Of a stretch of 64,000 bases of DNA, positions 19,150-63,700 are shown one piece after another. Positions within the stretch are counted from its first letter, which is position 1. Each line of letters starts with the position of its first letter. The stretch is taken from the NCBI GenBank assembly GCA_049275655.1, contig JBASUY010000057.1, positions 5,303 through 69,302 of the forward strand. Direction: 5' to 3'. Under the pieces are notes generated by a model that was not told the DNA's origin, made no database searches, and saw nothing but the letters and a program-made list of their open reading frames with translations. The position numbers and the translations under genes are program-made. This DNA is from Candidatus Omnitrophota bacterium. GTDB lineage: Bacteria; Omnitrophota; Gorgyraeia; Gygaellales; Profunditerraquicolaceae.

Positions 19150-19196
19150 AAATAATAACTGAGGGACACCCGTAGCTTTAGCAGATTGGGTGTCCC
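19150..19196 (-). terminator. Rho-independent terminator directly after the EF-G fusion gene (also hairpin-competent on + strand)
   Basis: It is a 9-bp GC-rich inverted repeat (gggacaccc ... gggtgtccc at 19163..19196) with a 16-nt loop. On the minus strand it is followed by a T-rich run, and on the plus strand by tattcttttttttg. Confidence 0.6.
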
Positions 19197-23572: not shown

Positions 23573-23791
23573 AACATAAAAAAATCCCCGCTTTGTGCCG
23601 TTAGACTGACTCAATTGAACCGATCTTTTTAGGTGGGTGCCTTCTCTATGGCGCAAAAGCGTCGTAGAATACAGGCTCCCTTGATATTTTTGTTGGTTCA
23701 AAAATTATCAATTTTCCAACGCGCACAGCAGGGATTTTAAAAGAACTCGTTTTCTAAAAAAAGTATAGCACATATTTTCGCAAAGTCAACC

Positions 23792-38403: not shown

Positions 38404-39926
38404 GCTTTTGCCCTATTTAAACGTAATTGAAAAAAGAGCATTAATGTACTATTAACAAACCAATAAAGGACTAAACCTGAAGGCATACGATAAAAAATTA
38501 AACAAAACATTATTGGCATAATAACCAACATCATTCTTTGTTGTTCGGTAGTTATACCAGTAGAAGAAGCAGATGAAATTTTCTGTTGAAAAAACATACC
38601 TATAGCCATTGCAATAGGCAAGATATTTAATTCATTACCGATTATTGGTAATTTGAGCCAAGAAAAAGGAAAAGTCCACAAATTATCCGGTTTTGATAAA
38701 TCTTTAATCCAAAGAAAACGAGCACCTTTTAAGGCTATTGAACGTATTAAAGCATTATAAAGCGCAAAAAATATGGGCATTTGCAATAAAAGCGGTAAAC
38801 AACCACCTAAGGGATTTACATTATGCTCTTTATAAAGCCCCATGATCTCTTTATTCAATTTTTGTGGATTATCTTTATAAGTTTGTCGTAATAATTCTAT
38901 CTTGGGTTGTAAAGCTTGCATCTCTTTCATAGAGCGCATTTGTTTTAAAGATAATGGATATAATATCATATATACTAATAAACTTAGAAAGATTATAGCC
39001 AAGCCCCAATTATGTAAAATCCTGTATAAAAAATTAAGGGTTTGCAATAAGACTTGTGAAATAAAATCAAATCTTCCAAAATGCACTATATTTCCCCAAA
39101 GTGGATTAGTTTTATTAATAATAGTTAGATCTTGAGGACCAAGATAAATTTTATATAAATGTCCAATTTGCTGATTAGGAGAAATATTAACAGTTTGGAC
39201 ATTAATTCCTACTTCAGATTCTTGATTATTCAGTTTTTTAATAAAAGCGTTTGCTTGTTCAAAATCAGGTTCAATTATTGCCGCAAAATATTGATCTCGT
39301 AATCCAAAAAATTTGATATCTAAAAATTGTCCATCCTTTTTTCCATTTACATGAAAAGTCTTTTCTTGTAGGCCTACGGTTAAATCTTGATATCGCGCTT
39401 GCGGATTATTATGAGCAAAATTCAATACCCCTAATAAAATCGGAATATTCATAGAAATAGGAATAGTGGAATTGTTTGTAATTATTGTTTCTAATGTAAT
39501 GGTGTAATTAGACTTATGAAAAATAAATCTCTTGATTATCTTTTGGGTAGGGGTTATAGCATAAAAACTGATACTATTATTTGTACTCTCTCCTTTTTTA
39601 AAGACCAAAGAGGGGTCCCCCAACAAAAACCCATACTTAAGAGAGAGCTCATCATTATTATAATGAGTAAATATCACTTTTTGTAAAGTTGCTTGCGACT
39701 CATTAAAAATAGCTTTTAGGTTCTCCTGTTGATAAATTATGGGCTTATCTTCTCTGGGAATAACCTGCGAAAGGTTAATATTATTAACCGGCATAGGCGC
39801 AGAGACGCTTCCCAATTCCTTATTAACTCTTTGTGTTACAACAGGTTGCGGTTTTGGCACCAAAGCAGACCAAGTTAACAATACTAATAGTGATAATCCG
39901 ATTGCTATAACTAAACGCTTTTCCAT
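38400..39926 (-). CDS. yidC: Membrane protein insertase YidC
   Basis: The 508 aa product has an N-terminal TM and periplasmic domain. It has a conserved 60KD_IMP C-terminal core (LLQMPIFFALY, PSGLVLYWFVNS). Confidence 0.9.
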   Translation of the reverse strand: MEKRLVIAIGLSLLVLLTWSALVPKPQPVVTQRVNKELGSVSAPMPVNNINLSQVIPREDKPIIYQQENLKAIFNESQATLQKVIFTHYNNDELSLKYGFLLGDPSLVFKKGESTNNSISFYAITPTQKIIKRFIFHKSNYTITLETIITNNSTIPISMNIPILLGVLNFAHNNPQARYQDLTVGLQEKTFHVNGKKDGQFLDIKFFGLRDQYFAAIIEPDFEQANAFIKKLNNQESEVGINVQTVNISPNQQIGHLYKIYLGPQDLTIINKTNPLWGNIVHFGRFDFISQVLLQTLNFLYRILHNWGLAIIFLSLLVYMILYPLSLKQMRSMKEMQALQPKIELLRQTYKDNPQKLNKEIMGLYKEHNVNPLGGCLPLLLQMPIFFALYNALIRSIALKGARFLWIKDLSKPDNLWTFPFSWLKLPIIGNELNILPIAMAIGMFFQQKISSASSTGITTEQQRMMLVIMPIMFCLIFYRMPSGLVLYWFVNSTLMLFFQLRLNRAKA

Positions 39927-39930
39927 CTTA

Positions 39931-40155
39931 TTAATCTAACGGATCATATAGCCCTCTGCCTGAAAATGGATGGCACATAGATATCCTCTTAACTCCTTTT
40001 AAAGAGCCTTTTAATACCCCATATCTTTGAATTGCCTCTTTTGTATATTCAGAGCAGCTTGGAATAAAGCGGCAGGCAGGAGGCAAAACAAACCTTATAT
40101 ACTTTTGATAGTAACCTATAATCCTAATGGCGAACTTTTGCAAGATTAGAGACAA
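39931..40155 (-). CDS. yidD: Membrane protein insertion efficiency factor YidD
   Basis: It reads IRIIGYYQKYI...PACRFIPSCSEYTKEAIQRYG, the YidD/hemolysin family signature. Confidence 0.85.
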   Translation of the reverse strand: MSLILQKFAIRIIGYYQKYIRFVLPPACRFIPSCSEYTKEAIQRYGVLKGSLKGVKRISMCHPFSGRGLYDPLD

Positions 40156-40283
40156 AGCCTCTTCCTACCTTTTTTCCTGCGCCGGGCTAAGAGTTTGCGG
40201 CCCTTGCGGGTTGACATCTTCTTCCGAAAGCCCTGCCTTCTTTTACCAACAATATTGGTCGGAGTTTTCAAATTCTTTTTCAT
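40146..40283 (-). CDS. rpmH: 50S ribosomal protein L34
   Basis: I translated this by hand; it is absent from the track because it is under 60 aa. The 45 aa product is MKKNLKTPTNIVGKRRQGFRKKMSTRKGRKLLARRRKKGRKRLCL. It matches the L34 consensus (MKRTFQPS..KR...HGFR.RM.T..GR.VL..RR.KGRK.L). Confidence 0.85.
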   Translation of the reverse strand: MKKNLKTPTNIVGKRRQGFRKKMSTRKGRKLLARRRKKGRKRLCL

Positions 40284-40732
40284 CTTCTTATCCCTCTTAA
40301 TTAAGATTGATTATGATGGTTGCTAATTATAGCATAAAAGCACACTCCGTCAATGGGTAATTTATATATTAATATAAAAGAGCCTTAATCTCCACCGAAT
40401 ATCCACAGCTCCGTCGATATTATCACCCTGCAGCCTCTCTTTGGCGCTTTTTAATCCTTATGATTATATTATAAAAGCGCCAGAGAATAAACCACTAAAG
40501 CTTATATCTAATTTGTATTGACGCAAGAGAAGAACGATGTATAATAACTGACGTTTAACTTTTTTGCTTGCAACTACTTTAATTTCTGTTATAATTATTG
40601 CACTCTACCTAAGGTATTGGAATGCCGACTATATTTGTCGCCGGTTTTATGATTTTAGGGGCTTGAGATCCTATAATAATAAGAATCATTTTTCCACAGA
40701 TTTATACAAGATGTGGATAAACTGTTAATAGA
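40284..40732. promoter_or_regulatory. Putative chromosomal replication origin (oriC) and dnaA promoter region
   Basis: It is a 449-nt non-coding rpmH-dnaA spacer. There is a perfect DnaA box TGTGGATAA at 40712..40720. Near-consensus boxes are aATATCCACA at 40398..40407 and TTTTCCACA at 40691..40699. An AT-rich run (atttatatattaatataaaag) lies at about 40360. Sigma70-like promoters are TTGACG-16-TATAAT (40518..40545) and TTGCAA-16-TATAAT (40568..40595). Gene-strand polarity flips here. Confidence 0.6.
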
Positions 40733-42073
40733 ATGAATTTGCAGGACTTAACGTTAATTTGGAACCGCGCTTGCCAACAGCTTCAGCAAATAATAGAGCA
40801 TACTGCTTTTGAGACTTGGATATTGCCGTTGCAGGTTAAATCAAAAACCGCAAACTCCTTAACCTTAGAGGCGCCGGATAATTTCTTTAAAGAATGGGTA
40901 CAAAAAAATTATGGGCCGATTATTGAAAACGCCATCAAAAAGTCCTATCCTGATATCATTAATATTGAAATAGGGGTAATACCGCAAACGTCCCCTAATT
41001 TAACCCCACCCCTTTCAACTATAGCCATAAAAGAAAAGGGGGAACAATATGGCATAGGGCTAAATAATAGATATACATTTGATAATTTTGTTGTCGGATC
41101 ATCTAATCGCCACGCACACGCCTATTCTGTCGCCGTAGCAGAGGCTCCGGCAAAAACCTATAATCCGCTTTTTATATACGGGGGTGTGGGCTTAGGGAAA
41201 ACACACCTTATACAAGCTATATGCCACAAAATTAAAGAGGGCGCAAAGAATAACTTAAAGATAGCTTACCTACCATCTGAACAATTTACCAACGAACTAA
41301 TTAATGCAATACAGCGCCACGCCACTGCTAATTTTAGACAAAAATATAGAAACGTTGATATCCTTGTTATTGATGACGTACATTTTTTCGGCGGCAAAGA
41401 CTCTACACAGGAGGAGTTTTTCCATACCTTTAATACACTGTATGATGCACACAAACAAATCATCCTCTCATCAGACCGGCCACCTAAAGAGATCGCCGAT
41501 TTACAAGAACGGTTAATATCCCGTTTTGGCTGGGGTTTAACAACCGATATACAACCGCCAGACCTAGAGACAAGGGTAGCCATTTTAAAAAAGAAGGTTG
41601 AACGGGAACCTGTTGTGGTCCCGGATGACGTTATATTTTTTATAGCGCAACTGATCAAGACTAATATCCGCGAATTAGAAGGAGCCTTGGTCCGAACAAT
41701 GGCTTATTCTTTAATGGAAGAGGAGCCCATTACCGTGAGCCTAACAAAAGAGGTTTTAAAAGACCTTATAAGGGAACCAAAAAAGCTAATTACCGTAGAT
41801 TTTATAATGCGTTGTACCGCAGAAGAGTTTGGTATCCTTATGGGGGATATGAAAACTCGCAGGAGAAATAAGACCGTAGTCTTACCGCGGCAGGTAGCTA
41901 TGTATTTAAGTAGAGAGTTGACGGATTTATCTTTGCCGGAAATAGGAGGGTTTTTTGGAGGGAAGGACCATACTACGGTATTGTATGCATACAATAAAAT
42001 TAAAGAGAGTATTAATAAAGATTGTCTTTTAAGTGACAAGATAACCCGAATTATAAACGTTCTTAAACAATAA
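40733..42073 (+). CDS. dnaA: Chromosomal replication initiator protein DnaA
   Basis: It has AAA+ Walker A ([10 protein letters not shown]) and Walker B (LVIDDVHF) motifs. It has sensor motifs and a C-terminal DnaA-box binding domain ([16 protein letters not shown]). Confidence 0.95.
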
Positions 42074-42207
42074 ATCCTAAGGTTATTCAATATATTTTTT
42101 ATTCTAACTTTTGATATCCATAGTGTTGGGTAGTTTTCAACAAAAAAGGCGGGGTATTACTATTACAACTATTTTTTATTTAATATATTAATAGTAAAGG
42201 AGATAAA

Positions 42208-49369: not shown

Positions 49370-49533
49370 CTTTATTTTTATGTGTGGAATAGTTGAGCAT
49401 GCAAGCGTAAGTCCAGCGCAGAATACTTTTTTCTGATAGGGTTAAAACGTTTAGGCACCGCGGATATAACAAAAAGAGGAAAATACGGGAATATAAACGG
49501 ATTAGCGAAACCCTTAAAGAGAGAGGTATTGAT

Positions 49534-50718
49534 ATGAAGAACTCAAAGGCCATGGATTATAAAGCCCGCCAGGTAGGCAAAAAAAATAATTGTATCCATA
49601 GGAATACAACACAGGCGCAAAAAAATGACTTTGCTCATTTTATGCTAAAAGAGATTAATGAGCAGCCAAAAACCTTAGAAAATTTTTTAAGTAGCAGGAT
49701 AAATAAAAAAACCCACAAGATAGAGTTTCTACAAGGAGAAATCTCAAAAGAGGCTTTAGGTAGCCTAAAAGATATTTTTATTATAGCCTGTGGGACGTCT
49801 TATCATGCCGGATTAGTAGGTAAGTATATTATAGAATCTTTATGCCGGATACCTGTACGCGTAGAAGTCTCAAGCGAATTTCATTATCGCGACCCATTGA
49901 TTGGCCCTAATACTTTGATTATCGCAATAAGCCAATCAGGGGAAACCGCGGATACTTTATCTGGGGTAGGCTTGGCACGGGCAAGAGGCGCAAGGGTTTT
50001 TACTATTTGTAATGTATTAGATTCTACATTAACCCGTAAGTCTGATGGCACTATTCATACGAATACCGGACTTGAGGTGGGAATAGCCGCTACAAAGACT
50101 TATACTACCCAGCTTGCTGCGTTGTATCTTTTTGCTTTGCATTTAGCGAAGGTAAAAAATATTTTGCCACCCGGTAAAATTCATAAACTGATAAAAGAGT
50201 TACGCAAGACACCGAAATATATAGAGGTTATCTTAAAAAACCAAAATCAGATAGCATCTATTGCCCGGAAGCACTCTAATTGTGAGGCTTTTCTTTATCT
50301 GGGGCGTAATATTAATTATCCCTCTGCTTTGGAGGGGGCATTAAAATTGAAAGAGGTCTCTTATATACCAGCGGAAGGGTATGCAGGCGGAGAGTTAAAG
50401 CACGGACCCATCGCCTTAATTGATGAGCGACGCATGGCAGTTTGTATTGCCCCGCAATCAAGAGTGTATGATAAGATGGTCTTAAGCATGCGGGAGATAC
50501 GCTTACGCAAGGGCAAGATTATTGCTATTGTCAGTAAGAACGATAGCGCAGTAAAAGCGTTAACCCACGGGACAATCTTTATACCGAAAATCAATGAATT
50601 ATTTTCTCCCCTTTTAGTGGCAATACCCTTACAACTATTAGCTTATTATATTGCAGCCAAAAAAGGTTATAATGTTGACCAACCACGCAACCTTACCAAA
50701 GCAGTTACTGTTGAATGA
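49534..50718 (+). CDS. GlmS-like sugar-phosphate isomerase (tandem SIS domains only; GlmD/AgaS-type), no glutaminase domain
   Basis: It is homologous to the C-terminal isomerase half of GlmS. It has EINEQPKTL, a first SIS domain (GTSYHAG...SQSGETADTL) and a second SIS domain. Its C-terminus (DQPRNLTKAVTVE) is identical in style to GlmS. The N-terminal Cys glutaminase domain is absent. An alternative start is at 49642. Confidence 0.75.
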   Translation: MKNSKAMDYKARQVGKKNNCIHRNTTQAQKNDFAHFMLKEINEQPKTLENFLSSRINKKTHKIEFLQGEISKEALGSLKDIFIIACGTSYHAGLVGKYIIESLCRIPVRVEVSSEFHYRDPLIGPNTLIIAISQSGETADTLSGVGLARARGARVFTICNVLDSTLTRKSDGTIHTNTGLEVGIAATKTYTTQLAALYLFALHLAKVKNILPPGKIHKLIKELRKTPKYIEVILKNQNQIASIARKHSNCEAFLYLGRNINYPSALEGALKLKEVSYIPAEGYAGGELKHGPIALIDERRMAVCIAPQSRVYDKMVLSMREIRLRKGKIIAIVSKNDSAVKALTHGTIFIPKINELFSPLLVAIPLQLLAYYIAAKKGYNVDQPRNLTKAVTVE

Positions 50719-51412: not shown

Positions 51413-51563
51413 TTGACAAAGGATTTGGGCGTGGTATACTTACCTTAAATTAGAAGGACCTTTAAGGCCTGCTCAGAGAGGCAGGCAAGGCGGAGAAAGT
51501 AATGGAGTTTACAACCTGTATATTAGATACCCTAGGCATAAAAGCCTAGGGTATTTTTTTATT
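51413..51563 (+). promoter_or_regulatory. pyr operon promoter + PyrR-binding loop + intrinsic terminator (transcription attenuator)
   Basis: The promoter is TTGACA-17-TATACT (51413..51441). The PyrR binding-loop motif is cctgCTCAGAGAGGCAGGCAAGG (51468..51490), against the consensus UCCAGAGAGGCU.GCAAGG. The terminator hairpin is accctaggc-ataaaa-gcctagggt (51529..51552) followed by T9. Confidence 0.65.
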
Positions 51564-51570
51564 TTGAAAG

Positions 51571-52107
51571 ATGAAAGAGAAGGCTAGGATATTAGATAAA
51601 GAGGCGATAAGCCGCGCTTTAATGCGCATTGCCCATGAGATAGTGGAGAAGAACAAGGGGACACAAAACCTATGCCTTATAGGGATAAGGAATCGCGGAG
51701 TTTTTTTAGCTAGGCGCCTGGCAGAGCAGATTAAAAAAATTGAAGGAGGCGATGTGTTATTCGGGGTTTTAGATATCACCCTCTACCGCGATGACCTTGC
51801 TTTGGCCTCCGGGCAGCCTATTGTGCGCAAGACAGAGATAGGTTTTGATATTAATAATAAACTACTCGTTCTTGTGGACGATGTCTTATATACCGGTAGG
51901 ACTATACGCGCGGCTTTGGACGCCTTAACTGATTTTGGTAGGCCTGAATCCATACAATTAGCGGTTTTAATTGACCGCGGACATCGGGAGTTGCCTATAA
52001 GGGCAGATTATGTAGGCAAGAATATTCCTACTGCTAAACATGAAACAATTCAGGTTCGGTTATTAGAAGTGGACAGGGCAGAAGAAGTTGTAATTTTAGA
52101 AAAATGA
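51571..52107 (+). CDS. pyrR: Bifunctional pyr operon regulator / uracil phosphoribosyltransferase PyrR
   Basis: It reads [22 protein letters not shown]...[17 protein letters not shown] and has the PRPP motif [17 protein letters not shown]. Confidence 0.9.
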
Positions 52108-53051
52108 GTTGGGTTAAAAAAGATTTATTAGGACTGGAATATCTAAGCAAAGAAGAGATCGAGTTAATTTTATCTACTGCTGAGTCTTTTAAAGAGGTCT
52201 CTACCCGAGAGATAAAAAAAGTTCCCGCTTTGCGCGGCAAGACCGTAGTTAATTTATTTTATGAGCCATCTACGCGTACCCGTGTATCATTTGAGGTAGC
52301 GGCAAAAAGGTTATCGGCAGACGTGATTAATATAGCTACCGAGACCTCAAGCGTTAAAAAAGGAGAGACCTTAATTGATACTGGGCGCAATATCGAGGCT
52401 CTTAAAGCGGATATTATTGTTGTGCGCCACAATGCATCCGGGGCAGCGGCTATACTTGCCAGGCATCTTAATATAAGCGTAGTCAATGCTGGGGATGGCT
52501 GGCATGAGCACCCAACCCAAGCCTTATTGGATATTTTTACCCTGAAGGAAAAGTTAGGAAGGGTACAAGGGTTAAATGTAACCATAGTAGGAGATATTGC
52601 CCACTCTCGTGTAGCCCGTTCAAATGCGTGGGGTTTAGTTAAGTTGGGGGCTAAGGTTACTTTTTGTGCCCCACAGATACTTATCCCGGCAGGCGTTGAA
52701 GGGTTTGGCGTTCAGGTAACCGACAATATAGAAGAGGCTTTAGAAAATGCCGATGCGGTTAATGTCCTGCGGATGCAGTTTGAGAGGGATGGTGGATCAG
52801 CCTTCCCTGAGCAGTTAGAATATTTTAAGAACTTTGGGATTACCGAAGAGAGGATCAAGAGGGCAAAAAAGGGAATAGTTGTTATGCACCCCGGGCCAAT
52901 TAACCGCGGGATAGAGATGTCAAGCGAAGTTGCTGATGGAGAAAACTCTGTGATTTTAGAACAGGTTATTAATGGGATAGCTGTGCGCATGGCGGTTTTG
53001 TATTTAGTCTCGCAAGCTAACGAAAGAATAAAAAATGGCGGTACTGATTAG
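52104..53051 (+). CDS. pyrB: Aspartate carbamoyltransferase catalytic subunit
   Basis: It has the STRTR motif ([11 protein letters not shown]), HPTQ, and HPGP with LP. Confidence 0.9.
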
Positions 53052-54312
53052 AGGCGGTAGGGTTGTTGATCCGTATAATAATACAGATGGTGTTTTTGAT
53101 CTTTTGATTGAGGGGAGTAAGATTATTAAGGTTGCAGCTGGTATTAAGGATGCGGCAGTTGAAGTAATTGAGGCAAGCGGAAAGATAGTAATTCCCGGTT
53201 TAGTAGATATGCACGTGCATTTAAGAGAACCGGGTAGAGAGGATAAAGAGACCCTCCTCTCAGGCACAATAGCTGCGCTTGCCGGAGGCGTAACCAGTAT
53301 TTTAGCCATGCCTAATACTACTCCTGCTATGGATTCTGTTGATAGTATTAAAATTTTAAAAGAGAGGATAGATGCGAATGCTAAGGCAAATGTCTTTATC
53401 TGTGGAGCAATCACAAAAGAGAGGGCAGGTAAAGACCTTGTAGATATAGAAGCCCTGAAAAAAGAAGGGGTTATTGCAATTTCTGATGACGGAGCATCCG
53501 TTGATTCGGATAGCCTAATGCTTGCGGCCTTTAAGGAAGCAGTTCAAGAGGGGTTACTTGTTATTTGCCACTCTGAAGATAAGTCTGCTTCCTGCGCTGG
53601 AGTAGTTAATTTGGGGTTTACCTCTACCCGATTAGGCCTAAGGGGAATATCTAAAGAATCCGAGTATAAAAGGGTCTTACGGGATATTGAATTAGCTAAA
53701 GAAGCAAAGGCAAAAGTTCATATAGCACATTTAAGTTGCCTTGAGTCAGTTGATGCGGTCTTGAAGGCAAAACAAAGAGGCGCAAGAGTTACGGTAGAGA
53801 CCTGTCCGCATTATTTTAGCTTTACAGAAGAAGCGGTATTAACCTATGATACTAATTTTAAAATGAACCCGCCATTAAGAAGCGCGGCAGATTCTCAGGC
53901 ACTTAAGGATGCTATATCTTCCGGGATAATTGACGTGATTGCCTCAGACCATGCGCCTCATACTGAAAATGAAAAAGACATAGAGTTTGAGCGCGCAGAA
54001 TTCGGAGTGATTGGTTTAGAGACTGCACTCTTAGCCGCCATAACAGAGTTAGTGGATAAAGGTGTCTTAGGATGGGCTGATTTAGTTAAAAGAATGTCAT
54101 TAAATCCTGCGCGCATCTTGGGTATAAATAAGGGGAGCCTTTCTGTGGGAGCTGATGCGGATATTGCTATAATTGACCCTGTTAAAGAGCAAAGGATTAC
54201 TAAAGAGCGTTTTTTATCTAAATCTAAGAATTCTCCGTTTATAGGCAGGACGCTTAAAGGTTGTGTAGAATACACGCTTTGCTTAGGGAAGGTGTATAAA
54301 TGGAATTCATAG
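53035..54312 (+). CDS. pyrC: Dihydroorotase
   Basis: The amidohydrolase metal ligands are DMHVHLREPG and SDHAPH. It is 425 aa. Confidence 0.85.
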   Translation: MAVLIRGGRVVDPYNNTDGVFDLLIEGSKIIKVAAGIKDAAVEVIEASGKIVIPGLVDMHVHLREPGREDKETLLSGTIAALAGGVTSILAMPNTTPAMDSVDSIKILKERIDANAKANVFICGAITKERAGKDLVDIEALKKEGVIAISDDGASVDSDSLMLAAFKEAVQEGLLVICHSEDKSASCAGVVNLGFTSTRLGLRGISKESEYKRVLRDIELAKEAKAKVHIAHLSCLESVDAVLKAKQRGARVTVETCPHYFSFTEEAVLTYDTNFKMNPPLRSAADSQALKDAISSGIIDVIASDHAPHTENEKDIEFERAEFGVIGLETALLAAITELVDKGVLGWADLVKRMSLNPARILGINKGSLSVGADADIAIIDPVKEQRITKERFLSKSKNSPFIGRTLKGCVEYTLCLGKVYKWNS

Positions 54313-55532
54313 CGGATTTTCATATTCACTCAAAGTATTCTAGGGCTACGAGCCGTAATATGGATATTAAGAATTTAGCGGAATGGGCAAAACTGAAAGG
54401 TATATCCCTTATGGGAACAGGAGATTTTACCCACCATTTATGGCTTGAGGAGCTTAAGGCGAACTTAGAGGATTGCGGTAATGGGCTTTATGCGTACAAC
54501 GGAATAAGTTTTATATTAACTGCCGAAGTAAGCAGTATTTATTCAAAGAAAGGTAGGTCTTATAGGATACACAACTTAATATTTGCTCCTTCATTTAAGG
54601 TTGTAGACCAGATAAATGATACCTTGGGCAGAATCGGCAATTTATCCTCAGACGGCAGGCCGATTTTAGGGCTTGACGCCGCAGAACTTGCCCGCATTGT
54701 CTTTGATATAGACGAGAATTGTATGCTCATCCCCGGGCATATCTGGACTCCGTGGTTTTCTTTGTTTGGCTCTATGTCCGGCTTTGACAGAATAGAAGAC
54801 TGTTTTGAGGATCAGACATCAAAAATCTTTGCCCTTGAAACCGGGCTCTCTTCGGACCCGGCGATGAATTGGAGGCTAAGCGCCTTAGATAAATTTACCC
54901 TGATTTCAAATAGCGATTCCCATTCTCCGCAGAAAATAGGAAGGGAGGCGAATGTTTTTAATTGCGCGCTTGATTATAATGAAATCCGCCAAGCTTTAAA
55001 AACAAAGGATAAGGATAAGTTTCTTTATACGATAGAGTTTTTCCCGGAAGAAGGAAAGTACCATTTTGACGGGCATAGGCTTTGTGGGGTAAGATGGTCT
55101 CCGCAGGAGACTAAAAAACATAGCGGTAAATGCCCTAAATGCGGGAAGAAGGTTACCGTAGGTGTTTTAAATAGAGTAGAGTCTTTAGCAGATAGGCCAG
55201 AAGGGTTTAAGCCTGCCGATGCAATACCATTTATAAACCTAATTCCATTAGACGAGATAATTGCCGATGCTAAAGGCGTTGGCAAGGCGAGCGTTGCTGT
55301 GGAGCGTGATTACCGTAGCATGATTGCTAAATTTGGCACGGAATTTGAGATATTAAAACGGGTGCCTAAAGAAGAGTTGTTGAAAGGGTTAGCTTCAAAG
55401 ATAGCTGAGGGCATTTTAAGGGTGCGGGAAAGGAGGGTTAACATAAAGGCCGGATTTGACGGAGAATATGGCAAGATTTCTATCTTTGAAGATAAAGAGA
55501 CAGAGAAGGAGGAGCAGCTCAGGCTGTTTTAA
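54300..55532 (+). CDS. PHP-domain nuclease with C-terminal Cys-rich zinc ribbon, endonuclease Q-like
   Basis: It has an N-terminal PHP motif (ADFHIHSKYSRATS) and a further PHP His/Asp cluster (NSDSHSP). It has a C-terminal HRLCG...CPKCGKK zinc finger. The 410 aa length and architecture match EndoQ/TIGR00375 as I recall it. Its start overlaps the pyrC stop. Confidence 0.45.
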   Translation: MEFIADFHIHSKYSRATSRNMDIKNLAEWAKLKGISLMGTGDFTHHLWLEELKANLEDCGNGLYAYNGISFILTAEVSSIYSKKGRSYRIHNLIFAPSFKVVDQINDTLGRIGNLSSDGRPILGLDAAELARIVFDIDENCMLIPGHIWTPWFSLFGSMSGFDRIEDCFEDQTSKIFALETGLSSDPAMNWRLSALDKFTLISNSDSHSPQKIGREANVFNCALDYNEIRQALKTKDKDKFLYTIEFFPEEGKYHFDGHRLCGVRWSPQETKKHSGKCPKCGKKVTVGVLNRVESLADRPEGFKPADAIPFINLIPLDEIIADAKGVGKASVAVERDYRSMIAKFGTEFEILKRVPKEELLKGLASKIAEGILRVRERRVNIKAGFDGEYGKISIFEDKETEKEEQLRLF

Positions 55533-55562: not shown

Positions 55563-55634
55563 GCGCCTGTAGCCTAATGGATAGGGCATTAGCCTCCGGA
55601 GCTAAGTGTGACAGTTCGATTCTGTCCAGGCGCA
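55563..55634 (+). tRNA. tRNA-Arg (anticodon CCG)
   Basis: The sequence GCGCCTGTAGCCTAATGGATAGGGCATTAGCCTCCGGAGCTAAGTGTGACAGTTCGATTCTGTCCAGGCGCA folds as a cloverleaf with the anticodon loop ctCCGga. Confidence 0.8.
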
Positions 55635-55686: not shown

Positions 55687-56157
55687 ATGAAAAAAATTAT
55701 AGGGGTTATTGGTGGGCATATATGTAATAATAAAGTAGGGGATTTAGCCTATAAATTAGGCATTAAACTTGCTAAAGTGGGGGATTATCTTGTATGTGGA
55801 GGGCTTAGTGGAGTAATGAACCATGTTTGTAAAGGTTTTAAGCAAGGAGGTGGGGTTACAATAGGCATTATTCCGGGCTATAATAAATCTACTGCAAATA
55901 AGTATGTAGATATTGTTATTCCTACAGGTATGGGGTTCGCAAGGAATGTTTTAGTGGTTAAGAGCGCGGATATTGTTGTTGCTTTCCCGGGGAGGACAGG
56001 GACTTTATCAGAGATAGCGTATTGTTTACAATTTAATATTCCGGTGATAGGGTTTAAGTATTGGAATATACCTGGAATTATCCGAGTGGATAAGATTGAT
56101 AAAGTAGTTGAAATAGTTAAGGATACCCTATCTAAAGTAGTTTTGGAGGATGAGTAA
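55687..56157 (+). CDS. LOG/TIGR00725-family Rossmann-fold protein (putative nucleotide 5'-monophosphate nucleosidase-like)
   Basis: It reads IIGVIGG...LVCGGLSGVMN...FPGRTGTLSE. This matches the LOG-family PGGxGTxxE motif and glycine-rich loop. It is 156 aa. Confidence 0.55.
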   Translation: MKKIIGVIGGHICNNKVGDLAYKLGIKLAKVGDYLVCGGLSGVMNHVCKGFKQGGGVTIGIIPGYNKSTANKYVDIVIPTGMGFARNVLVVKSADIVVAFPGRTGTLSEIAYCLQFNIPVIGFKYWNIPGIIRVDKIDKVVEIVKDTLSKVVLEDE

Positions 56158-57233
56158 TGCAGGCTATTTTGGTTCTTGAGGACGGGAAGAGTTTTATAGG
56201 CGAATCTAGCGGGATAAAGACAGAGAGGGCCGGAGAGGTTATTGTAAATACCGGAGTTGTCGGGTATCAGGAGATGATAACTGACCCTGCAAACTTAGGG
56301 AAGATATTAGTTTTAACTTATCCTATTATAGGTAATTATGGTTGTGCGCCTAAGTTTAGCGAATCTGATAAAGTTAGAGTTGCCGGGCTTGTTGTAAAAG
56401 AGGAGTCCCGGGTATATTCAAACTGGCAGGCTAAAGAGAGCCTAAAGAGCTTTGCGCAGAAAAATGAATTATTTGTATTGCATTCTGTTGATACACGCAT
56501 GCTTGCGATACACCTAAGACAAAGAGGGCCCTTATACGGGATAATCTCTACGGAATCTTTTGATGTTAAGAGTCTTGTTGAGAATGCCCGCGCATTCCGT
56601 CAAAGCCCCCCTTTAGACGTGCTTAAAGAGGTCTCTGTCAGTAAGCCAAAAAAGTTAGATAAGTCAAAAGGCAAGAGGTTAGCAATATTAGATTTGGGGG
56701 TAACGAGGAGCATTATAAGGCAGATTGAGCGTTTAGGGTTTTCAATAACCCTCTTGCCGTATAATACTGCTACTTCAGAGGTAATAAAGTTAAGGCCCAA
56801 GGGCTTAGTTATCGCTGGAGGGCCTGAGAATATTATTGCGTTGGAGAGGGTTGCTGAAAGTATCAAACCTTTATTAGGGAGGATGCCTATTTTAGGAATA
56901 TCTTCCGGGAGTTTAGTCTTGGCATTAGGCTTGGAAGCTAAGCTTCATAGGTTGCAAATAGGGCATAGGGGGATGAATTATCCGGTGCAAAATCCCTCTT
57001 CTCCTAAAGGGGAGATTACTATCCAAAACCATACTTATGCTATAGACCCTATTTCTTTGCTTAAGGTGCGGGGGGTAAAGATTACTGGGTATAACCTAAA
57101 CGACAGGACAGTGGAAAGATTTGAAAGTAAGCGGTTAAAAATAATAGCAGTACAATATATTCCTTATTCGCCGGGATGTAATGAAGTTAATACGGATATC
57201 CTAAGGTTTAAGGGTATCTTGAAAGGAAGTTAG
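56157..57233 (+). CDS. carA: Carbamoyl-phosphate synthase small subunit homologue with degenerate glutaminase active site
   Basis: It has a CPSase_sm_chain N-domain (VIVNTGVVGYQEMITDPANLGKILVLTYPIIGNYG). In the GATase domain, the region aligning to E. coli GICLGHQ reads GISSGSL, so Cys269 becomes Ser. The region aligning to FQGHPE reads VQYIPY, so His353 becomes Ile and Glu355 becomes Tyr. Confidence 0.8.
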   Translation: MQAILVLEDGKSFIGESSGIKTERAGEVIVNTGVVGYQEMITDPANLGKILVLTYPIIGNYGCAPKFSESDKVRVAGLVVKEESRVYSNWQAKESLKSFAQKNELFVLHSVDTRMLAIHLRQRGPLYGIISTESFDVKSLVENARAFRQSPPLDVLKEVSVSKPKKLDKSKGKRLAILDLGVTRSIIRQIERLGFSITLLPYNTATSEVIKLRPKGLVIAGGPENIIALERVAESIKPLLGRMPILGISSGSLVLALGLEAKLHRLQIGHRGMNYPVQNPSSPKGEITIQNHTYAIDPISLLKVRGVKITGYNLNDRTVERFESKRLKIIAVQYIPYSPGCNEVNTDILRFKGILKGS

Positions 57234-57236
57234 CCT

Positions 57237-60200
57237 ATGCCTCGCAGAAGAGACATTAAAAAGATTTTAATAATTGGTTCCGGGCCTATTGTCATTGGTC
57301 AAGCTTGTGAGTTTGATTACTCAGGCTCTCAGGCGTGTAAGGCCTTAAAAGAGGAGGGTTATTTTACTATACTTATAAATTCCAACCCAGCGACAATAAT
57401 GACTGATCCGGGCATGGCGGATGTTACTTATATTGAACCTCTGTCTGTTGAGATGTTAACTAAGGTTATTGCTAAAGAACGTCCGGATGCTATTTTACCG
57501 ACATTAGGAGGGCAGACAGGGCTTAACCTTGCCTTCTTCCTTATGAAAAAAGGGGTTTTGAAGAAATACGGGGTTGAATCTATCGGGGCTTCGGTAAGTT
57601 CCATATCTTGCGCTGAGGATAGGGGAATTTTTAAAAGAGCGATGCAGGGGATAGGGGTTGGTATTCCTAAAAGTAGCATAGTTACTTCATTGGCCGAAGG
57701 GATGAGAGTGGGCCGTACCATAGGGTTTCCTCTTATATTAAGGCCTGCCTATACATTAGGGGGTAGCGGAGGGTCTATTGCTTATAATCATGAAGAGCTA
57801 AAAAGATTATTATCAAAGAGCTTAGAATCAAGCCCGGTCCATCAGGTTTTGATTGAAGAGTCTGTTTTAGGATGGAAGGAAATTGAGTTTGAGGTTTTAC
57901 GCGATTGTGCCGATAATGTAATTATCGTTACCTCTATGGAGAACTTTGATCCTATGGGAGTGCATACGGGGGATAGCATTGTTGTTGCCCCTGCCCAGAC
58001 GCTAACCGCAGAAGAATACAATAACTTTGTTAATCTTTCTAAGAGGATTATTCGCCGTATCGGGATAAACGGCGGGGGTGCGAATATACAGTTTGGCCAA
58101 AATCCTAAGGATGGCAGGATTGTAGTTATTGAGGTTAATCCGAGGCTCTCGCGTTCTTCTGCCTTAGCTTCTAAGGCGACCGGATTTCCTATTGCGCGTG
58201 TTGCAACGAAACTTGCTGTTGGTTATACGTTGCCTGAAGTGATAAACCAGGTTACAGGCAAGACCTCTTCATTTTTTGAACCTACGCTAGATTATTGCGT
58301 CTTTAAGATGTGCCGTTTTACTTTTGAAAAATTCCCCTACGCCCAGCGCCTCTTGAATACCTCAATGAAGGCTGTGGGAGAGGCGATGTCTATTGGGAGG
58401 AATTTTAAAGAGGCATTTCAAAAAGGCATTCGCTCTATGGAGATATCCCGTTTTGGCTTTGGTTCAGACGGAAAAGATAAAATTACTGACGCGGAACTAA
58501 AGAAAGCAGGGAATGGGTTAATTAAGCTTATGCGTGATAAACTTAGGATCCCTAATGATGAAAGGGTATTTTATATCCGCTACGCGCTTAAAGCCGGAAT
58601 CTCCCCTCAAGAGATAAGTTCCCTCTCTAATATTGACCGTTGGTTTATTGATAACCTGCAGGAGCTAGTTAAGATAGAAGAGGAGTTGGCGGGGTATAAA
58701 AATCATAAACCCGAAGAAGATATCAAGGTTCCTTTAGGGCTTCTTAAAAAAGCTAAAGAAAACGGCTTTTCTGACCACCAACTGGCATTTATATTAAATT
58801 CTAAAGAAGATAAGGTGCGTGATTTACGCAAGAAGTATAATATAAAAGCAGTCTATAAACTGGTGGATACATGTGCCGGAGGGGTTGCGGCTAAACAGCC
58901 ATATTTTTATTCTACTTATGAGGTTTTTGACGAGTCAAGGCCAAGTAAGAATAAAAAGGTAGTAATTTTAGGCGGAGGGCCTAACCGTATCGGACAGGGG
59001 ATTGAGTTTGATTATTGTTGTTGTCATGCAGCGTATGCTTTAAAAGATGAAGGTGTAGATAGTATTATGGTTAATTGTAACCCTGAGACGGTTTCAACGG
59101 ACTATGATACTTCTGACCGTCTTTATTTTGAGCCGCTTACATTTGAAGATATAATGAATATTATAGATTTAGAGAAACCAATGGGGGTTATCCTGCAGTT
59201 TGGCGGCCAGACACCTTTAAATCTTGCCCTCCCGCTACGCGAGGCAGGGGTTAACATTCTTGGGACCTCCGCAGAGAGCATTGATATTGCAGAAGACCGG
59301 AAGAGGTTTAAAGATATGCTGTATAAACTCGCCCTTTTGCAGCCTGAGAACGGGACCGCCTTTAATTTTGATGAGGCGAAGAAAGTAGCCAAAGAGATAG
59401 GTTATCCGGTTTTGGTTAGGCCGTCATATGTTTTAGGAGGCAGGGCAATGGAGATCGCCTATGACGAGGAGGCATTGGAAAAGTTTATTAAAGATGCGGC
59501 AGAGGTATCCGGGGAGCATCCGGTTTTAATTGATAAATTTTTAGAGGATGCTATTGAGGTGGATGTAGATTTAATCGGAGACGCAGAGACTTTTGTTATC
59601 GGAGGGATTATGGAGCATATTGAGTATGCCGGGGTTCACTCCGGCGATGCAGCGATGTCCCTTCCGACATATACGCTTTCTGAAGCAAGCTTGAATAAGA
59701 TCAGGCATGCTACATATGAGATGGCTAAAGAGTTAAAGGTAGTAGGCCTGATGAATATACAGTATGCGGTAAAAGATGATAAGGTTTATGTATTAGAGGT
59801 TAACCCAAGGGCTTCCCGGACGATTCCTTTTGTCTCAAAGGCCATAGGAGTTCCTTTGGCGAAGTTAGCGACAAAGGTATTATTAGGAAGGAAGCTAAAG
59901 GATTTAGGGTTTACCAAAGAGGTTATACCTAAACACATATCAATTAAAGAATCGGTCTTTCCTTTTAATCGTTTTCCGGGGGTGGATGTTATTTTAGGCC
60001 CGGAGATGAAATCAACCGGAGAGGTTATGGGGATTGATAAGGATTTTGGCCGCGCGTATATTAAAAGCCAGCTTGCCGCAGGCCAAAAACTTCCTAAGAA
60101 AGGCAATGTTTTTATCTCTGTGCGCGATAAAGACAAGAGGCAGATAATCTTTATCGCTAAAAAGATAGCGGAGTTAGGGTTTAATGTTTATGCCAGTTTA

Positions 60201-60524
60201 GGTACTGCTAATGTCTTACGCAAAAGCGGGATTAAGGTAAAGGTTTTGCCGAAAATAGCCGAAGGTAGGCCGAATATATTGGATTTGATGAAAGATGGAA
60301 AGATACAGCTTCTGATAAATACCCCTTCAGGGCGCATACCTCGTCAGGATGAGGTGAAGATTCGTTCACATGTTATACTATACAATATTCCCTATACTAC
60401 CAGCATCTCTGCTGCGCAGGCGACAGTTAATGGCATAGAGGTTTTATTAAAGAATGATTTAGAGGTTAAGCCCTTACAGGCATACCATAAGAAAAAAAGG
60501 CAAAGAGGAGGTTGTTGTGCCTGA
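57237..60524 (+). CDS. carB: Carbamoyl-phosphate synthase large subunit
   Basis: The 1095 aa product has duplicated ATP-grasp halves, an oligomerisation domain and a C-terminal MGS-like domain. Confidence 0.95.
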
Positions 60525-61320
60525 GTTGCCGGAAGTCGAGACTATAAAGAGAGAGTTAGAAAAGGTCGTAATAGGCAAAAAAATTTCCAAGGTATCTGTT
60601 TATAACCCTAGGGTCATACGTAGCCCTTCTGTCTCTAAGTTTAAAGCAATCTTATCCGGAACCCGTATAAACCGAATATTGCGTCGGGGCAAGGCCCTGA
60701 TATTTGAGCTCTCCAATGCTAAGGCCTTGGTTATTCACTTAAAGATGACCGGGCAGTTAATCTACCCGGGTTCAAAAAGCAAAGAGCAAAAAGTCTCTTT
60801 TGGTTTTTCAGGTGGGGATAGCCTTGTCTTTAATGATCAGAGGCTCTTTGCGGAGATTAGGCTTATGGATGATTGGAGGGAGTTAAAGTTTATACAGGGC
60901 TTAGGGCCTGAACCAAAGGATTTAACGCTCTTAAAATTTCAAGATATGTTAGCGGGTAAAAAAACGAAAATCAAGCCTTTGCTTATGGACCAGAAGTTTA
61001 TCTCTGGTATAGGCAATCTATATGCAGCAGAGATTTTGTTTGCTGCTAAGATTAATCCTGAGAAGAGGGCAAATAGCCTATCCAATAAAGAGAAAGAGAG
61101 GCTTTATAATGCTATGCGTAGCGTATTGGATGCGGCTATTAAGCATGGCGGTTCGTCTATTGATGACTATCTTCGCCTTTCAGGCGCAAAGGGAGAATAT
61201 AAAAAATACCACAAGGTCTATGGTAGAGAAGGCAAGCCTTGTTTTATATGTAAAAGTTTAATCAAAAGAAGCGTGTTAGGTGGAAGGGGTACTTATTTTT
61301 GCCCTAAGTGTCAAAGGTAA
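60517..61320 (+). CDS. mutM: Formamidopyrimidine-DNA glycosylase (Fpg/MutM)
   Basis: The N-terminus is [10 protein letters not shown], with catalytic Pro2 and Glu3. It has an H2TH domain and a C-terminal zinc finger ([25 protein letters not shown]). Its start overlaps the carB stop by 8 nt. Confidence 0.9.
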
Positions 61321-62099
61321 GGACAGTGAAGCAGATAAAGCCGAAGATTATCTCTAATAAGCTCTTAACAAAGAGTTATTGGCGTTGTATTATGCGCGCT
61401 CCAGCTATTGCTAAAATTGCTAAGCCGGGGCAGTTTATAAATGTTAAGACAACCAGCGGGTTAGTTCCTCTTTTGCGTCGCCCCTTTAGCATACACAATA
61501 TTGACGGAGCGGACTTAGAGGTTATTTATGATGTTGTCGGAGAAGGGACTAAGGCATTTTCTCAAAAAAGAAGCGGTGAGTATTTAGATATTATCGGGCC
61601 GTTAGGTAATGGATTTTCTCTGCCCGTATCTTCTAAGTACTTATTGATTGTTGTCGGGGGGGGAGTGGGTATTGCGCCGTTGTTTCTCTTAGCAAAAAAA
61701 GCGAAAACAAAAAATAAGATTGTTTTGATTGGTTCAAAGAACCAAGGAGAGCTTTTGTGTGAAAAAGAGTTTAAGGATATCGGATGTGATGTTAAAATAT
61801 CTACGGATGACGGGTCTTATGGATTTAAGGGGCAGGTAACATCTTTATTAAGAGAGGTGCTTGATATTAAGAGAAGAGAAAAAGAAAGAATACTTATATA
61901 TGCTTGCGGCCCTACACCGATGCTTAAAGAGGCCTTTAAGATTGCAACTACGAATGGCTTACCTGCGCAGTTTTCATTAGAGGAGCATATGGGTTGTGGC
62001 ATAGGAGCCTGTTTAGGGTGTGTGGTAAAGACAAAAAATGGCCTAAAGAGGGTTTGTAAAGAAGGCCCGGTATTTAATGCTTCGGATTTAGTATGGTGA
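61308..62099 (+). CDS. pyrK: Dihydroorotate dehydrogenase electron-transfer subunit (FAD/[2Fe-2S])
   Basis: It has an FAD-binding module (RAPAIAKIAKPGQFINV, RRPFSI) and a C-terminal 2Fe-2S cluster (CGIGACLGC). The start is a GTG at 61308 overlapping mutM, or possibly the GTG at 61326. Confidence 0.85.
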   Translation: MSKVRTVKQIKPKIISNKLLTKSYWRCIMRAPAIAKIAKPGQFINVKTTSGLVPLLRRPFSIHNIDGADLEVIYDVVGEGTKAFSQKRSGEYLDIIGPLGNGFSLPVSSKYLLIVVGGGVGIAPLFLLAKKAKTKNKIVLIGSKNQGELLCEKEFKDIGCDVKISTDDGSYGFKGQVTSLLREVLDIKRREKERILIYACGPTPMLKEAFKIATTNGLPAQFSLEEHMGCGIGACLGCVVKTKNGLKRVCKEGPVFNASDLVW

Positions 62100-62103
62100 A
62101 GAT

Positions 62104-63027
62104 ATGAGTGTTAATCTTGCAGTTAATATAGGTAAACTTAAATTAAAGAATCCAGTGATGGTTGCCTCCGGAACCTTTGGCTATGCTAAAGAGTTTAAAG
62201 ATTTTATTAATCTAAGAAGATTAGGGGCCATTGCAACAAAGACTATAACCTTAAAACCCCGTCAAGGTAATCCCCCTGTCCGTACCTGTGAAACTCCCTG
62301 TGGGATGCTTAATTCCATCGGTTTAGAAAATCCCGGGATAAATTCCTTTTTAAAGGATAATTTGCCTTTTTTGAAAAAGTTGCAGGTGCCCATTGTTATG
62401 AGTATTGCTGCGGAGGATAATCCTTCTGAATTTGTAGAGCTTACGAAGAGATTAAACAAATTAAGTTGTGTTGATGCCTTAGAGCTTAATATATCCTGCC
62501 CTAATATCGCAGGTAAGAGCGATTTAATTGCACAAGATAAGGATGCTACGTATGCAGTTGTCCGTTCTGTGCGTAAGGCCACAACTAAAACTTTGATTAC
62601 TAAATTATCCCCCAATGTTACTTCTATTAGCGAGATTGCCGGCGCTGCGCAGGAAGCCGGCAGTGACGCAGTCTCTTTAATTAATACGCTCTCGGGTATG
62701 AGTATCGATATTTTTACCATGAGGCCAAAACTTGCGCAGGCTTTTGGAGGCTTAAGCGGCCCGGCAATAAGGCCGGTAGCTATTAAGATGGTCTGGGATG
62801 TCTATAATAAGATTAAAATTCCAATTATCGGAATGGGTGGTATAATAGATGCGCAAAGTGCATTAGAATTTTTTATCGCCGGGGCTACTGCTATAAGCGT
62901 AGGAACAGCTAATTTTATTAATCCTAAGGTAAGCGTTGAGATAATAGACGGGTTAAAAAGATACCTTAAAGATAAGAAGATACAAAATATTCAAAACCTT
63001 ACCGGAAGCTTAATCTATGAAACCTGA
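62104..63027 (+). CDS. pyrD: Dihydroorotate dehydrogenase catalytic subunit (class 1B)
   Basis: It reads LKNPVMVASGTFGYAKEF with the catalytic Cys region NISCPN. It is 307 aa. Confidence 0.9.
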   Translation: MSVNLAVNIGKLKLKNPVMVASGTFGYAKEFKDFINLRRLGAIATKTITLKPRQGNPPVRTCETPCGMLNSIGLENPGINSFLKDNLPFLKKLQVPIVMSIAAEDNPSEFVELTKRLNKLSCVDALELNISCPNIAGKSDLIAQDKDATYAVVRSVRKATTKTLITKLSPNVTSISEIAGAAQEAGSDAVSLINTLSGMSIDIFTMRPKLAQAFGGLSGPAIRPVAIKMVWDVYNKIKIPIIGMGGIIDAQSALEFFIAGATAISVGTANFINPKVSVEIIDGLKRYLKDKKIQNIQNLTGSLIYET

Positions 63028-63700
63028 GATAGTTTTGGCACTTGATGTGGATAATTTTCTTCAAGCGCGCCAGCTTGTGGATAAACTCTATCCTACTATT
63101 AAAACATTTAAGGTAGGAAGCCAGTTATTTACCTCATGCGGGCATAAGATTGTAGAGTTTATCAATAAAAAAGGCGCTAAGGTATTTTTAGACTTAAAAT
63201 TTTTTGATATACCCAATACCGTTGCCAAGGCAGTTCGCGCAGCAACCCGCCTTAAGGTTAAGATGATGACCATGCATATCCTTGGCGATGAGGAGATGCT
63301 TAAGGCAGCGGTCTTTGCCGCGAAGGATGAGGCAAGGAGACTTCGCATAAAAAGGCCGCTTTTAATCGGGGTTACTGTATTGACTAGCAAGGAAGCGAAG
63401 ATAAATGATGTTTTAATTTTAGCAAAGATGGGGATAGAGTCTGGTTTGGACGGAGTGGTCTGCTCTGCTAAGGAGGCAGGGGAAGTGCGTAAGAATATAA
63501 AAGGGGAGTTTGTTATCGTAACTCCGGGGCTAAGGGCAAGGGGTAGTTTTAAGAATGACCAAAAGAGGACTGCGACTATCCTTGAGGCAATCTCTGCAGG
63601 GAGTAATTTTTTAGTAGTCGGCAGGCCGCTCTTAGAAGCAACTAACCCTAAGGCAACCGCAAAAGCAATGTTAGGAGAGATAAATGCCGGAAGAGATTAA
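63017..63700 (+). CDS. pyrF: Orotidine 5'-phosphate decarboxylase
   Basis: It reads IVLALDVDNF with the DxKxxDIP motif (LDLKFFDIPNTV). Confidence 0.9.
   Translation: MKPEIVLALDVDNFLQARQLVDKLYPTIKTFKVGSQLFTSCGHKIVEFINKKGAKVFLDLKFFDIPNTVAKAVRAATRLKVKMMTMHILGDEEMLKAAVFAAKDEARRLRIKRPLLIGVTVLTSKEAKINDVLILAKMGIESGLDGVVCSAKEAGEVRKNIKGEFVIVTPGLRARGSFKNDQKRTATILEAISAGSNFLVVGRPLLEATNPKATAKAMLGEINAGRD

Follow-up and report, generated by a model that had tools for sequence, protein, structure and literature searches.

From where is the nitrogen of carbamoyl phosphate drawn when the small subunit of a bacterial carbamoyl-phosphate synthetase (CPS) lacks the residues that hydrolyze glutamine? This question is raised by a gene, here termed carA* (product, CarA*), in a 64,000-nucleotide stretch of a Candidatus Omnitrophota genome (contig JBASUY010000057.1; the window). 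According to the CPS1 structure paper, all CPS types except CPS1, the mitochondrial urea-cycle enzyme of vertebrates, use glutamine (PMC4655335), and a 2018 review puts bacterial CPS in the CPS II group (PMC6022934). We suggest that CarA*-CarB probably represents a distinct, old bacterial CPS lineage spread over several phyla, which would combine a pseudo-glutaminase subunit with the use of free NH3, analogous to CPS1 but independent of it.

The small subunit and its glutamine site

The features of carA* are given below. Residue counts refer to its top 120 database homologues (the clade of 120; 56-90% identical, 119 full-length and one a fragment) and to 70 triad-bearing CarA representatives. 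Wherever the annotation of a top homologue names an organism, it is an Omnitrophota member, save for one unclassified bacterium.

56157..57233, + strand: carA*, a CarA homologue of 358 residues without the glutaminase triad (open reading frame, Pfam, TIGR01368, PDB-chain alignments, MAFFT)
56169..56546, + strand: N-terminal CPSase_sm_chain domain, residues 5-130 (PF00988, 137.8 bits), which provides the contact surface for CarB in E. coli CPS
56289..56291, + strand: Ala45, replacing the glutamine-site residue Ser47 (Ala in 119/120 of the clade, Ser in 70/70 triad-bearing CarAs)
56685..57158, + strand: class-I glutamine amidotransferase (GATase)-like, pseudo-glutaminase domain, residues 177-334 by Pfam (PF00117, 86.8 bits)
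56826..56828, + strand: Glu224, replacing Gly243 of the GPGDP loop beside the oxyanion-hole residue Gly241 (Glu in 120/120 of the clade, Gly in 70/70 triad-bearing CarAs)
56901..56903, + strand: Ser249, encoded by TCT, where E. coli has the nucleophile Cys269 (HMMER against PDB chains, MAFFT)
56973..56975, + strand: Met273, corresponding to Gly293 in the small-subunit part of the E. coli ammonia tunnel (111/120 clade members have Val)
57159..57167, + strand: Ile335-Pro336-Tyr337, replacing His353-Pro354-Glu355 (HMMER against CPS1, MAFFT)

The initial annotation had described a full-length CarA homologue with an intact N-domain, which is borne out by the open reading frame (ORF) and by its Pfam and TIGR01368 matches. 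It had also described an overlap of the gene with carB, which does not exist: the carA* stop codon (TAG, 57231-57233) and the carB ATG at 57237 are separated by a 3-nt spacer, so that the two are separate, unfused ORFs, and the overlap lies at the other end, where the carA* ATG shares 1 nt with the TAA stop of an upstream TIGR00725 gene (TAATG). A ribosome-binding site (GGAGGA) is located 9 nt 5' of this ATG.

The CarA* protein scored 311.1 bits on TIGR01368, barely above the cutoff of 307.35. Its best full-length sequence match in the PDB was the E. coli CarA C269S variant (1C30), while the GATase-like half on its own matched the human CPS1 pseudo-glutaminase best (72.5 bits), followed by E. 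coli C269S (69.7 bits) and the wild type (67.4 bits). An AlphaFold2 model, built from an input alignment of 91 sequences and predicted with a mean local confidence (pLDDT) of 94.3, superposed on E. coli CarA chains with template-modelling (TM) scores of 0.92-0.94 and on the N-terminal moiety of CPS1 with a score of 0.87. As the predicted fold is thus kept, the alignment of the active site is secure and does not appear to be an artefact of a different fold. Judged by its sequence, carA* is a CarA by descent that lacks the catalytic hallmarks of the "glutamine-hydrolyzing" family (TIGR01368/EC 6.3.5.5), and this name does not suit it. The NCBI records that we saw nevertheless name these triad-less proteins "glutamine-hydrolyzing", with scores just above the TIGR01368 cutoff.

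In alignments of carA* with PDB chains, "pilGISSGSLvlal" pairs with E. coli "pvfGICLGHQllal", placing Ser249 at Cys269, and "avQYIPY.sPG" pairs with human CPS1 "avQFHPEvtPG", placing Ile335 at the catalytic His and Tyr337 at the catalytic Glu. MAFFT put a one-residue gap rather than Tyr337 at Glu355, such that no Glu is present under either alignment. In addition to Ser47 and Gly243, a third glutamine-site residue, Gln273 (Gln in 69/70 triad-bearing representatives), is replaced, by Leu253. Across the clade of 120, position 269 is Ser in 92, Ala in 21, Gly in six and Cys in one, position 353 is Tyr, Ile, Leu, Met, Asn or Cys, and Glu355 is missing throughout; no conserved Cys was found anywhere in these homologues. 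Free variation of this kind at 269 and 353 is what one sees when a site has ceased to serve catalysis. Retained in the clade are N311, H312, G241, P358 and G359 (E. coli numbering), and CarA* itself keeps Asn291-His292 and the tunnel residues Pro339-Gly340. Two further differences from E. coli, G352Y and H341E, were dismissed as clade-specific changes: the 70 triad-bearing CarAs show Tyr or Phe at 352 and a variable residue at 341, E. coli being atypical. The multiple alignment and the model-checked fold thus confirm the earlier statement that all three triad residues are substituted (Ser249, Ile335 and Tyr337 or a gap). With the triad and three further glutamine-site residues replaced, a glutaminase-dead CarA* is strongly supported on sequence grounds; the other half of the earlier proposal, that the dead subunit acts as a scaffold, is plausible.

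It is conceivable that CarA* still hydrolyzes glutamine via Ser249 or a non-canonical catalytic set, as Ser is a chemically capable nucleophile and the commonest residue at position 269 (92/120). We consider this highly improbable. Ala or Gly occupies 269 in 27 close homologues, His and Glu are gone, and the oxyanion and glutamine-site residues are changed. E. coli CarA C269S is the classic glutaminase-dead mutant, although it still binds glutamine. That engineered variant (1C30/1C3O) resembles CarA* in carrying Ser at the nucleophile position, but the rest of its glutamine site is intact, unlike that of CarA*. Likewise, CPS1, in which the nucleophile Cys of the glutaminase-like domain is replaced by Ser294, cannot use glutamine and uses NH3 instead (PMC4655335).

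The Ser codon TCT lies a single base from the Cys codon TGT, as would be expected if the altered site resulted from faulty sequencing or assembly, or from decay of the gene. However, gene calls on at least 24 contigs, which stem from separate sequencing runs, give the identical 358-residue protein, a sister species with 90% identity has the same residues at the catalytic positions, and the complete triad is found in none of the 119 full-length homologues and at none of 38 full-length loci from Omnitrophota species representatives. The ORF is intact with its ribosome-binding site and yields a confident model. Moreover, the ratio of non-synonymous to synonymous substitution rates (dN/dS) relative to the sister is 0.17 for the GATase-like domain and 0.09 for the N-domain, and mean pairwise identity in the clade amounts to 0.68 and 0.76 for these two parts, respectively. 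Low dN/dS together with high identity of the domains shows purifying selection on the whole protein while the catalytic positions drift. An artefact or decaying pseudogene is ruled out by the identical copies, the 38/38 loci and the dN/dS values, and we give it essentially no credence. The comparison of orthologues that the initial annotation had proposed thus finds the triad loss common to all full-length Omnitrophota homologues and loci scored.

Distribution of the triad loss and the large-subunit gate

Triad-less CarAs are also encoded outside the Omnitrophota. In a HMMER pass over 1.84 billion cluster representatives, it was possible to score the triad positions in 147 of the best 150 matches; 70 had Cys-His-Glu and 77 did not (mostly Gly at 269), a split that is no estimate of prevalence, as the ranking favours relatives of the triad-less query. 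Planctomycetota, including metagenome-assembled genomes (MAGs) labelled Phycisphaerae and Brocadiia, have Gly269 in 119/120 sequences, with the His mostly kept and the Glu lost. Triad-less CarAs of Margulisiibacteriota/Saganbacteria bear the motif "GIQNGACVL", and further cases were found in Ratteibacteria and in a few Bacillota MAGs. In every examined locus with downstream sequence, carB follows the triad-less carA. On the sequences scored, the triad loss marks the entire phylum Omnitrophota as well as a CPS lineage that extends across at least four phyla, a breadth that the initial annotation had missed.

The partner CarB was compared with E. coli CarB. The relevant features are:

57237..60524, + strand: carB, a full-length, intact large subunit of 1095 residues (NF003671, 1601 bits; all CPSase_L domains and MGS)
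57930..57938, + strand: CarB Thr232-Ser233-Met234, 232 being the position of the gate Cys (alignment to E. coli CarB)
58029..58031, + strand: CarB Val265, replacing Arg265 (alignment to E. coli CarB)

The first 400 residues of the window CarB scored 744 bits against E. coli CarB and 554 bits against CPS1, and their numbering is that of E. coli; an MGS-like allosteric domain is also present. The ammonia tunnel of E. coli CPS ends in a triangular gate formed by A314, A251 and C232 (PMC8674909). The window CarB keeps A251 and A314, and with them the tunnel residues E217, N283, N301, S307, A311 and M378, but has Thr at 232. Among Omnitrophota CarBs, T232 and M234 are found in 36/36, and residue 265 is Val in 35 and Thr in one. 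By comparison, C232 and R265 are present in each of the 22 CarBs whose CarA partner bears the triad, with Ile (12) or Met (10) at 234, and E. coli CarB and CPS1 likewise have Cys at the 232 position and Arg at 265.

The same combination recurs in other phyla. Two Planctomycetota CarBs (loci L005 and L090) show Thr, Met and Thr or Val at positions 232, 234 and 265, and a CarB with T232, M234 and a residue other than Arg at 265 is also found in L047, L049 and L082; across the clade, residue 265 changes from Arg to Val, Thr, Glu or Ala. Within the Margulisiibacteriota, a CarB beside a dead CarA (L045) has Thr, Met and Glu, whereas a half-size CarB beside an intact CarA (L046) has Cys, Ile and Arg. 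Even within this phylum, therefore, the gate changes accompany the dead CarA rather than the intact one, which suggests that the window CarB works with CarA*, and does so differently.

A neighbour-joining tree of the CarB N-half, from which columns 228, 232, 234 and 265 had been removed and CPS1 left out, grouped Ratteibacteria, Margulisiibacteriota/Saganbacteria, Planctomycetota and Omnitrophota as one clade apart from canonical CarB, and the CarA tree contained a matching clade of 41 leaves, all triad-less; both trees are distance-based and crude, and neither has support values. Based on these results, we propose a distinct CPS clade, provisionally named "Thr232-gate", in which a triad-less small subunit would be paired with a large subunit carrying T232, M234 and a residue other than Arg at 265, both subunits co-varying. 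This notion strengthens the earlier inference that carbamoyl phosphate is synthesized from free ammonia, as the changes at C232 and R265 run throughout the clade and occur in 0/22 CarBs with an intact CarA.

Not all triad losses belong to this clade. In Bacillota loci L006, L078, L079, L081 and L084, the Cys is lost (mostly to Gly) and carA lies 5' of carB in a pyr operon, as for carA*, but in the three loci where the CarB N-half could be scored (L006, L079 and L084) the partner CarB keeps Cys232 and groups with canonical CarB, unlike the Thr232 clade. These Bacillota losses look like separate, more recent events.

Three side observations concern the loci of the other phyla. The Margulisiibacteriota locus L046 (1212-6371) encodes an intact carA (Cys-His-Glu) with its half-size carB (544 residues, N-terminal half only), an ANTAR regulator and then, 2 kb downstream of the intact carA/half-size carB, a triad-less carA with its own carB. 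In L045 (2327-10246), the triad-less carA-carB pair is preceded, at a distance of about 2.4 kb, by an Amt ammonium transporter gene; such a gene was dismissed as a standard neighbour of triad-less carAB, since it was seen in L045 but in no other locus and not in the window. In the Planctomycetota loci L005 (9011-9946) and L090 (7011-7946), a 311-residue GMP synthase is encoded directly 5' of the Gly269 carA; it consists of the ATP-pyrophosphatase and GMP_synt_C domains only and lacks the GATase, and is thus a second glutaminase-less amidotransferase beside a dead CarA.

Nitrogen supply and the role of the retained domain

Among known systems, E. coli CarAB (PDB 1JDB, 1BXR, 1C30) resembles CarA*-CarB in its two subunits, gene order and folds, but has Cys269-His353-Glu355, Ser47/Gly243/Gln273 and, in CarB, C232/I234/R265, all of which are replaced here (CarB: Thr, Met, Val). 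With CPS1 (PDB 5DOT/5DOU), CarA* shares the retained glutaminase-like domain, the change of the nucleophile Cys to Ser and a bulky residue at the Gly293 position (Gln318 in CPS1, Met273 in CarA*, Val in the clade). In CPS1, Gln318 blocks the ancestral tunnel, while the gate equivalents Cys648, Ala667 and Ala729 are kept (PMC4655335). The motifs, too, are alike ("IAGGPGN" and "GISTGNL" in CPS1, "IAGGPEN" and "GISSGSL" in CarA*). Unlike CPS1, which is one fused polypeptide of 1500 residues, requires N-acetylglutamate and keeps the triad His and Glu (FHPE), CarA* and CarB are encoded by two genes and the His and Glu are lost; and where CPS1 keeps Cys648 (equivalent to C232) and the Arg equivalent to R265, the window CarB has Thr and Val. 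As CarB scores higher against E. coli CarB than against CPS1, and as deeper Omnitrophota have "GISTGHQ", the likeness to CPS1 is convergent, both overall and in its motifs, rather than due to descent. A conceptual parallel is provided by NAD synthetases, which use free NH3 in some bacterial lineages and a glutaminase module in others (PMC3376133); their fold and chemistry are unrelated, and their glutaminase domain is absent, not kept dead as in CarA*.

We propose that CarA* still binds CarB but would be unable to hydrolyze glutamine, and that the complex would supply the pyrimidine operon with carbamoyl phosphate made from bicarbonate, two ATP and free NH3. In the small subunit, the triad would have been lost and the glutamine pocket remodelled (S47A and G243E in Omnitrophota, a bulky residue at 293); in the large subunit, C232T and I234M at the gate, together with the change at residue 265, may adapt the ammonia path to external NH3. 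The retained GATase-like domain might serve as a scaffold, as an ammonia-entry element or as a regulator. The large subunit of E. coli CPS alone can use NH3.

Two routes for the ammonia can be envisaged. NH3 might enter via the remodelled glutamine pocket, where the invariant Glu224 would lie beside Asn291-His292 and Pro339-Gly340 are kept. Alternatively, the old tunnel might be shut by the bulky residue 273, as by Gln318 in CPS1, and NH3 would enter at the subunit interface near CarB Val265. Thoden et al. reportedly found in 2002 that R265 of E. coli CarB and P360/H361 of the small subunit seal the tunnel wall, and that ammonia leaks when all three are mutated. In a more specific version, which we advance as a tentative possibility, bacteria evolved their own ammonia-dependent CPS class, in which the dead domain and the re-gated CarB (C232T, R265V) jointly create a new entry route, or a capture site, for NH3/NH4+ from outside, with Glu224 as candidate ammonium-recruiting residue in Omnitrophota.

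Several points weigh against the use of free NH3. Canonical bacterial CPS has a poor affinity for NH3. A bulky residue at 293 may close the old tunnel; such a residue is found in the sequences of 35/75 triad-less and 12/70 triad-bearing representatives. An Amt gene beside triad-less carAB is confined to one locus (L045), and Margulisiibacteriota carry an intact carA and half-size carB beside the triad-less pair. The analysis covered 64 kb of the source genome and a contig scan with patterns drawn from the CarA* peptide, to which a divergent paralogue would be invisible, such that an intact carA or another ammonia-delivering partner may lie elsewhere. Finally, glutamine remains a nitrogen donor in Omnitrophota, given that 109/120 GlmS homologues from this phylum, most of them full-length, start with [MVL]CGI and thus keep the N-terminal Cys; by the same count, we rejected the idea that the phylum has given up glutamine amidotransfer in general.

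The coverage of 64 kb, and the presence of an intact and a triad-less system on one contig in L046, leave room for a working glutaminase elsewhere in the genome, either a second intact CarA or a class-I GATase, that feeds this CarB, with CarA* as a regulatory or structural paralogue or as part of a second, specialised CPS. We consider this unlikely. In every Omnitrophota species locus, carA* holds the canonical site directly 5' of carB in the pyr operon, with one carA per locus of 13-21 kb, and neither a second carA nor an ammonium transporter gene was found within the window. Furthermore, the complete triad is present in 0/120 of the closest homologues, and the altered CarB gate is found with the dead CarA.

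The remodelled pocket could also bind another nitrogen donor or an effector, which would make CarA* a new donor-processing or sensing module built on the invariant Glu224, Ala45 and the retained Asn291-His292. The near-uniform G243E (120/120) and S47A (119/120) in the former glutamine site would fit such a module, as would the retention of N311, H312, G241, P358 and G359 and the strong purifying selection on the GATase-like domain. However, there is no conserved nucleophile (Ser, Ala or Gly at 269 and no conserved Cys), Planctomycetota and Margulisiibacteriota members of the clade lack E224 and A45, and no conserved partner gene was seen among the loci compared, and we regard this alternative as quite unlikely. 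Synthesis from free NH3 by CarA*-CarB probably remains the better description of the locus.

In the literature searched, which left most subscription journals outside its scope, we found no mention of a triad-less bacterial CarA or of an ammonia-dependent bacterial CPS, Omnitrophota and Planctomycetes included. The co-variation of CarB with the triad-less CarA is the main new result. If the proposal is true, entire phyla, namely Omnitrophota and Planctomycetota with their Brocadiia-labelled MAGs, would not rely on glutamine for pyrimidine nitrogen, which would constrain nitrogen-flow models for the uncultured members of both, and the annotation "glutamine-hydrolyzing" would be wrong for many deposited sequences. 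The lineage would then also constitute an independent parallel to the transition from CPS III to CPS I and a natural experiment on re-routing of an ammonia tunnel, with CarB positions 232 and 265 as ready targets for mutagenesis.

A second glutamine-dependent enzyme is altered in the window. Its glmS lacks the class-II glutaminase domain: what remains is a 394-residue ORF (49534-50718, + strand) with just the two SIS domains, 62% identical to residues 223-612 of full-length Omnitrophota GlmS. A remnant of the old glmS start, 19 codons beginning "MCGIV..." (49380-49436) and a frameshifted "RHRGYN" trace, is found just after a tRNA-Glu gene. The same 394-residue ORF (82% identity) and the remnant are present in the sister species and in two metagenome contigs with the sister's protein (L087:2700-4185, L088, L089), indicating a genuine, inherited deletion. 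Among the other 118 GlmS homologues listed, 113 are about 612 residues long with GATase domains, and most of the rest look like contig-end fragments. The remaining isomerase half may form or break down GlcN6P with free NH3, in the manner of GlmD/NagB-II. The truncation in the genus of the window is in keeping with a lineage moving further in the direction of free ammonia, but happened separately from, and much later than, the loss in carA*.

Operon context and neighbouring genes

carA* and carB are embedded in a pyrimidine operon with the following further elements:

51455..51562, + strand: PyrR-binding attenuator RNA heading the operon (Rfam RF00515, 56.7 bits; gathering score 54)
51571..54312, + strand: pyrR, pyrB and pyrC, upstream in the same operon (ORFs; order shared by at least 30 Omnitrophota loci)
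54300-55532, + strand: endonuclease Q (EndoQ) homologue (216.7 bits to P. furiosus EndoQ, PfuEndoQ, PDB 5ZB8)
55563-55634, + strand: tRNA-Arg(CCG), between endoQ and the TIGR00725 gene
55687..56157, + strand: TIGR00725/SLOG-cluster-4 (LOG-like) gene, translationally coupled to carA*
60517..63700, + strand: mutM, pyrK, pyrD and pyrF, downstream in the same operon (mutM/Fpg at 60517-61320)

The order pyrR-pyrB-pyrC-(endoQ)-(TIGR00725)-carA*-carB-mutM-...-pyrK-pyrD-pyrF was found in essentially all Omnitrophota loci, and this conservation identifies carA*, directly upstream of carB, as the pyrimidine-pathway small subunit of the phylum. The LOG-like gene was considered as an obligatory partner and rejected: it is located directly 5' of carA* in only about half of the Omnitrophota loci and is thus not required.

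Two DNA-repair genes, the endoQ homologue and mutM/Fpg, lie within this PyrR-controlled operon, an arrangement conserved across Omnitrophota. In locus L001 (Omnitrophota contig Ga0315279_10000037), the EndoQ homologue has 825 residues, with a faint, sub-threshold match to an intein-splicing Pfam family. The gyrA gene of the same locus (L001:1-615) encodes 1263 residues with an intein (Intein_splicing and LAGLIDADG), while the window gyrA encodes 809 residues and has none.

The cumulative GC skew of the window reaches its minimum at about 40-42 kb, where the genes turn from the minus to the plus strand (about 39900-42100). Around this minimum lie dnaA (40733-42073), gyrB and gyrA downstream, and parA/parB and yidC upstream; the region of about 39900-42100 is probably the chromosomal replication origin. 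Elongation factor G (19196-22258, - strand) has 1020 residues, of which TIGR00484 (1036 bits) covers 327-1017 only; the roughly 325 residues of its N-terminal extension match no family. A 6S RNA (23581-23737, - strand; RF00013, 74.9 bits) overlaps the first approximately 40 codons of a TTG-start ORF (22262-23701) for a MgsA/RarA-like AAA+ protein, the real start of which is probably further downstream than the listed TTG.

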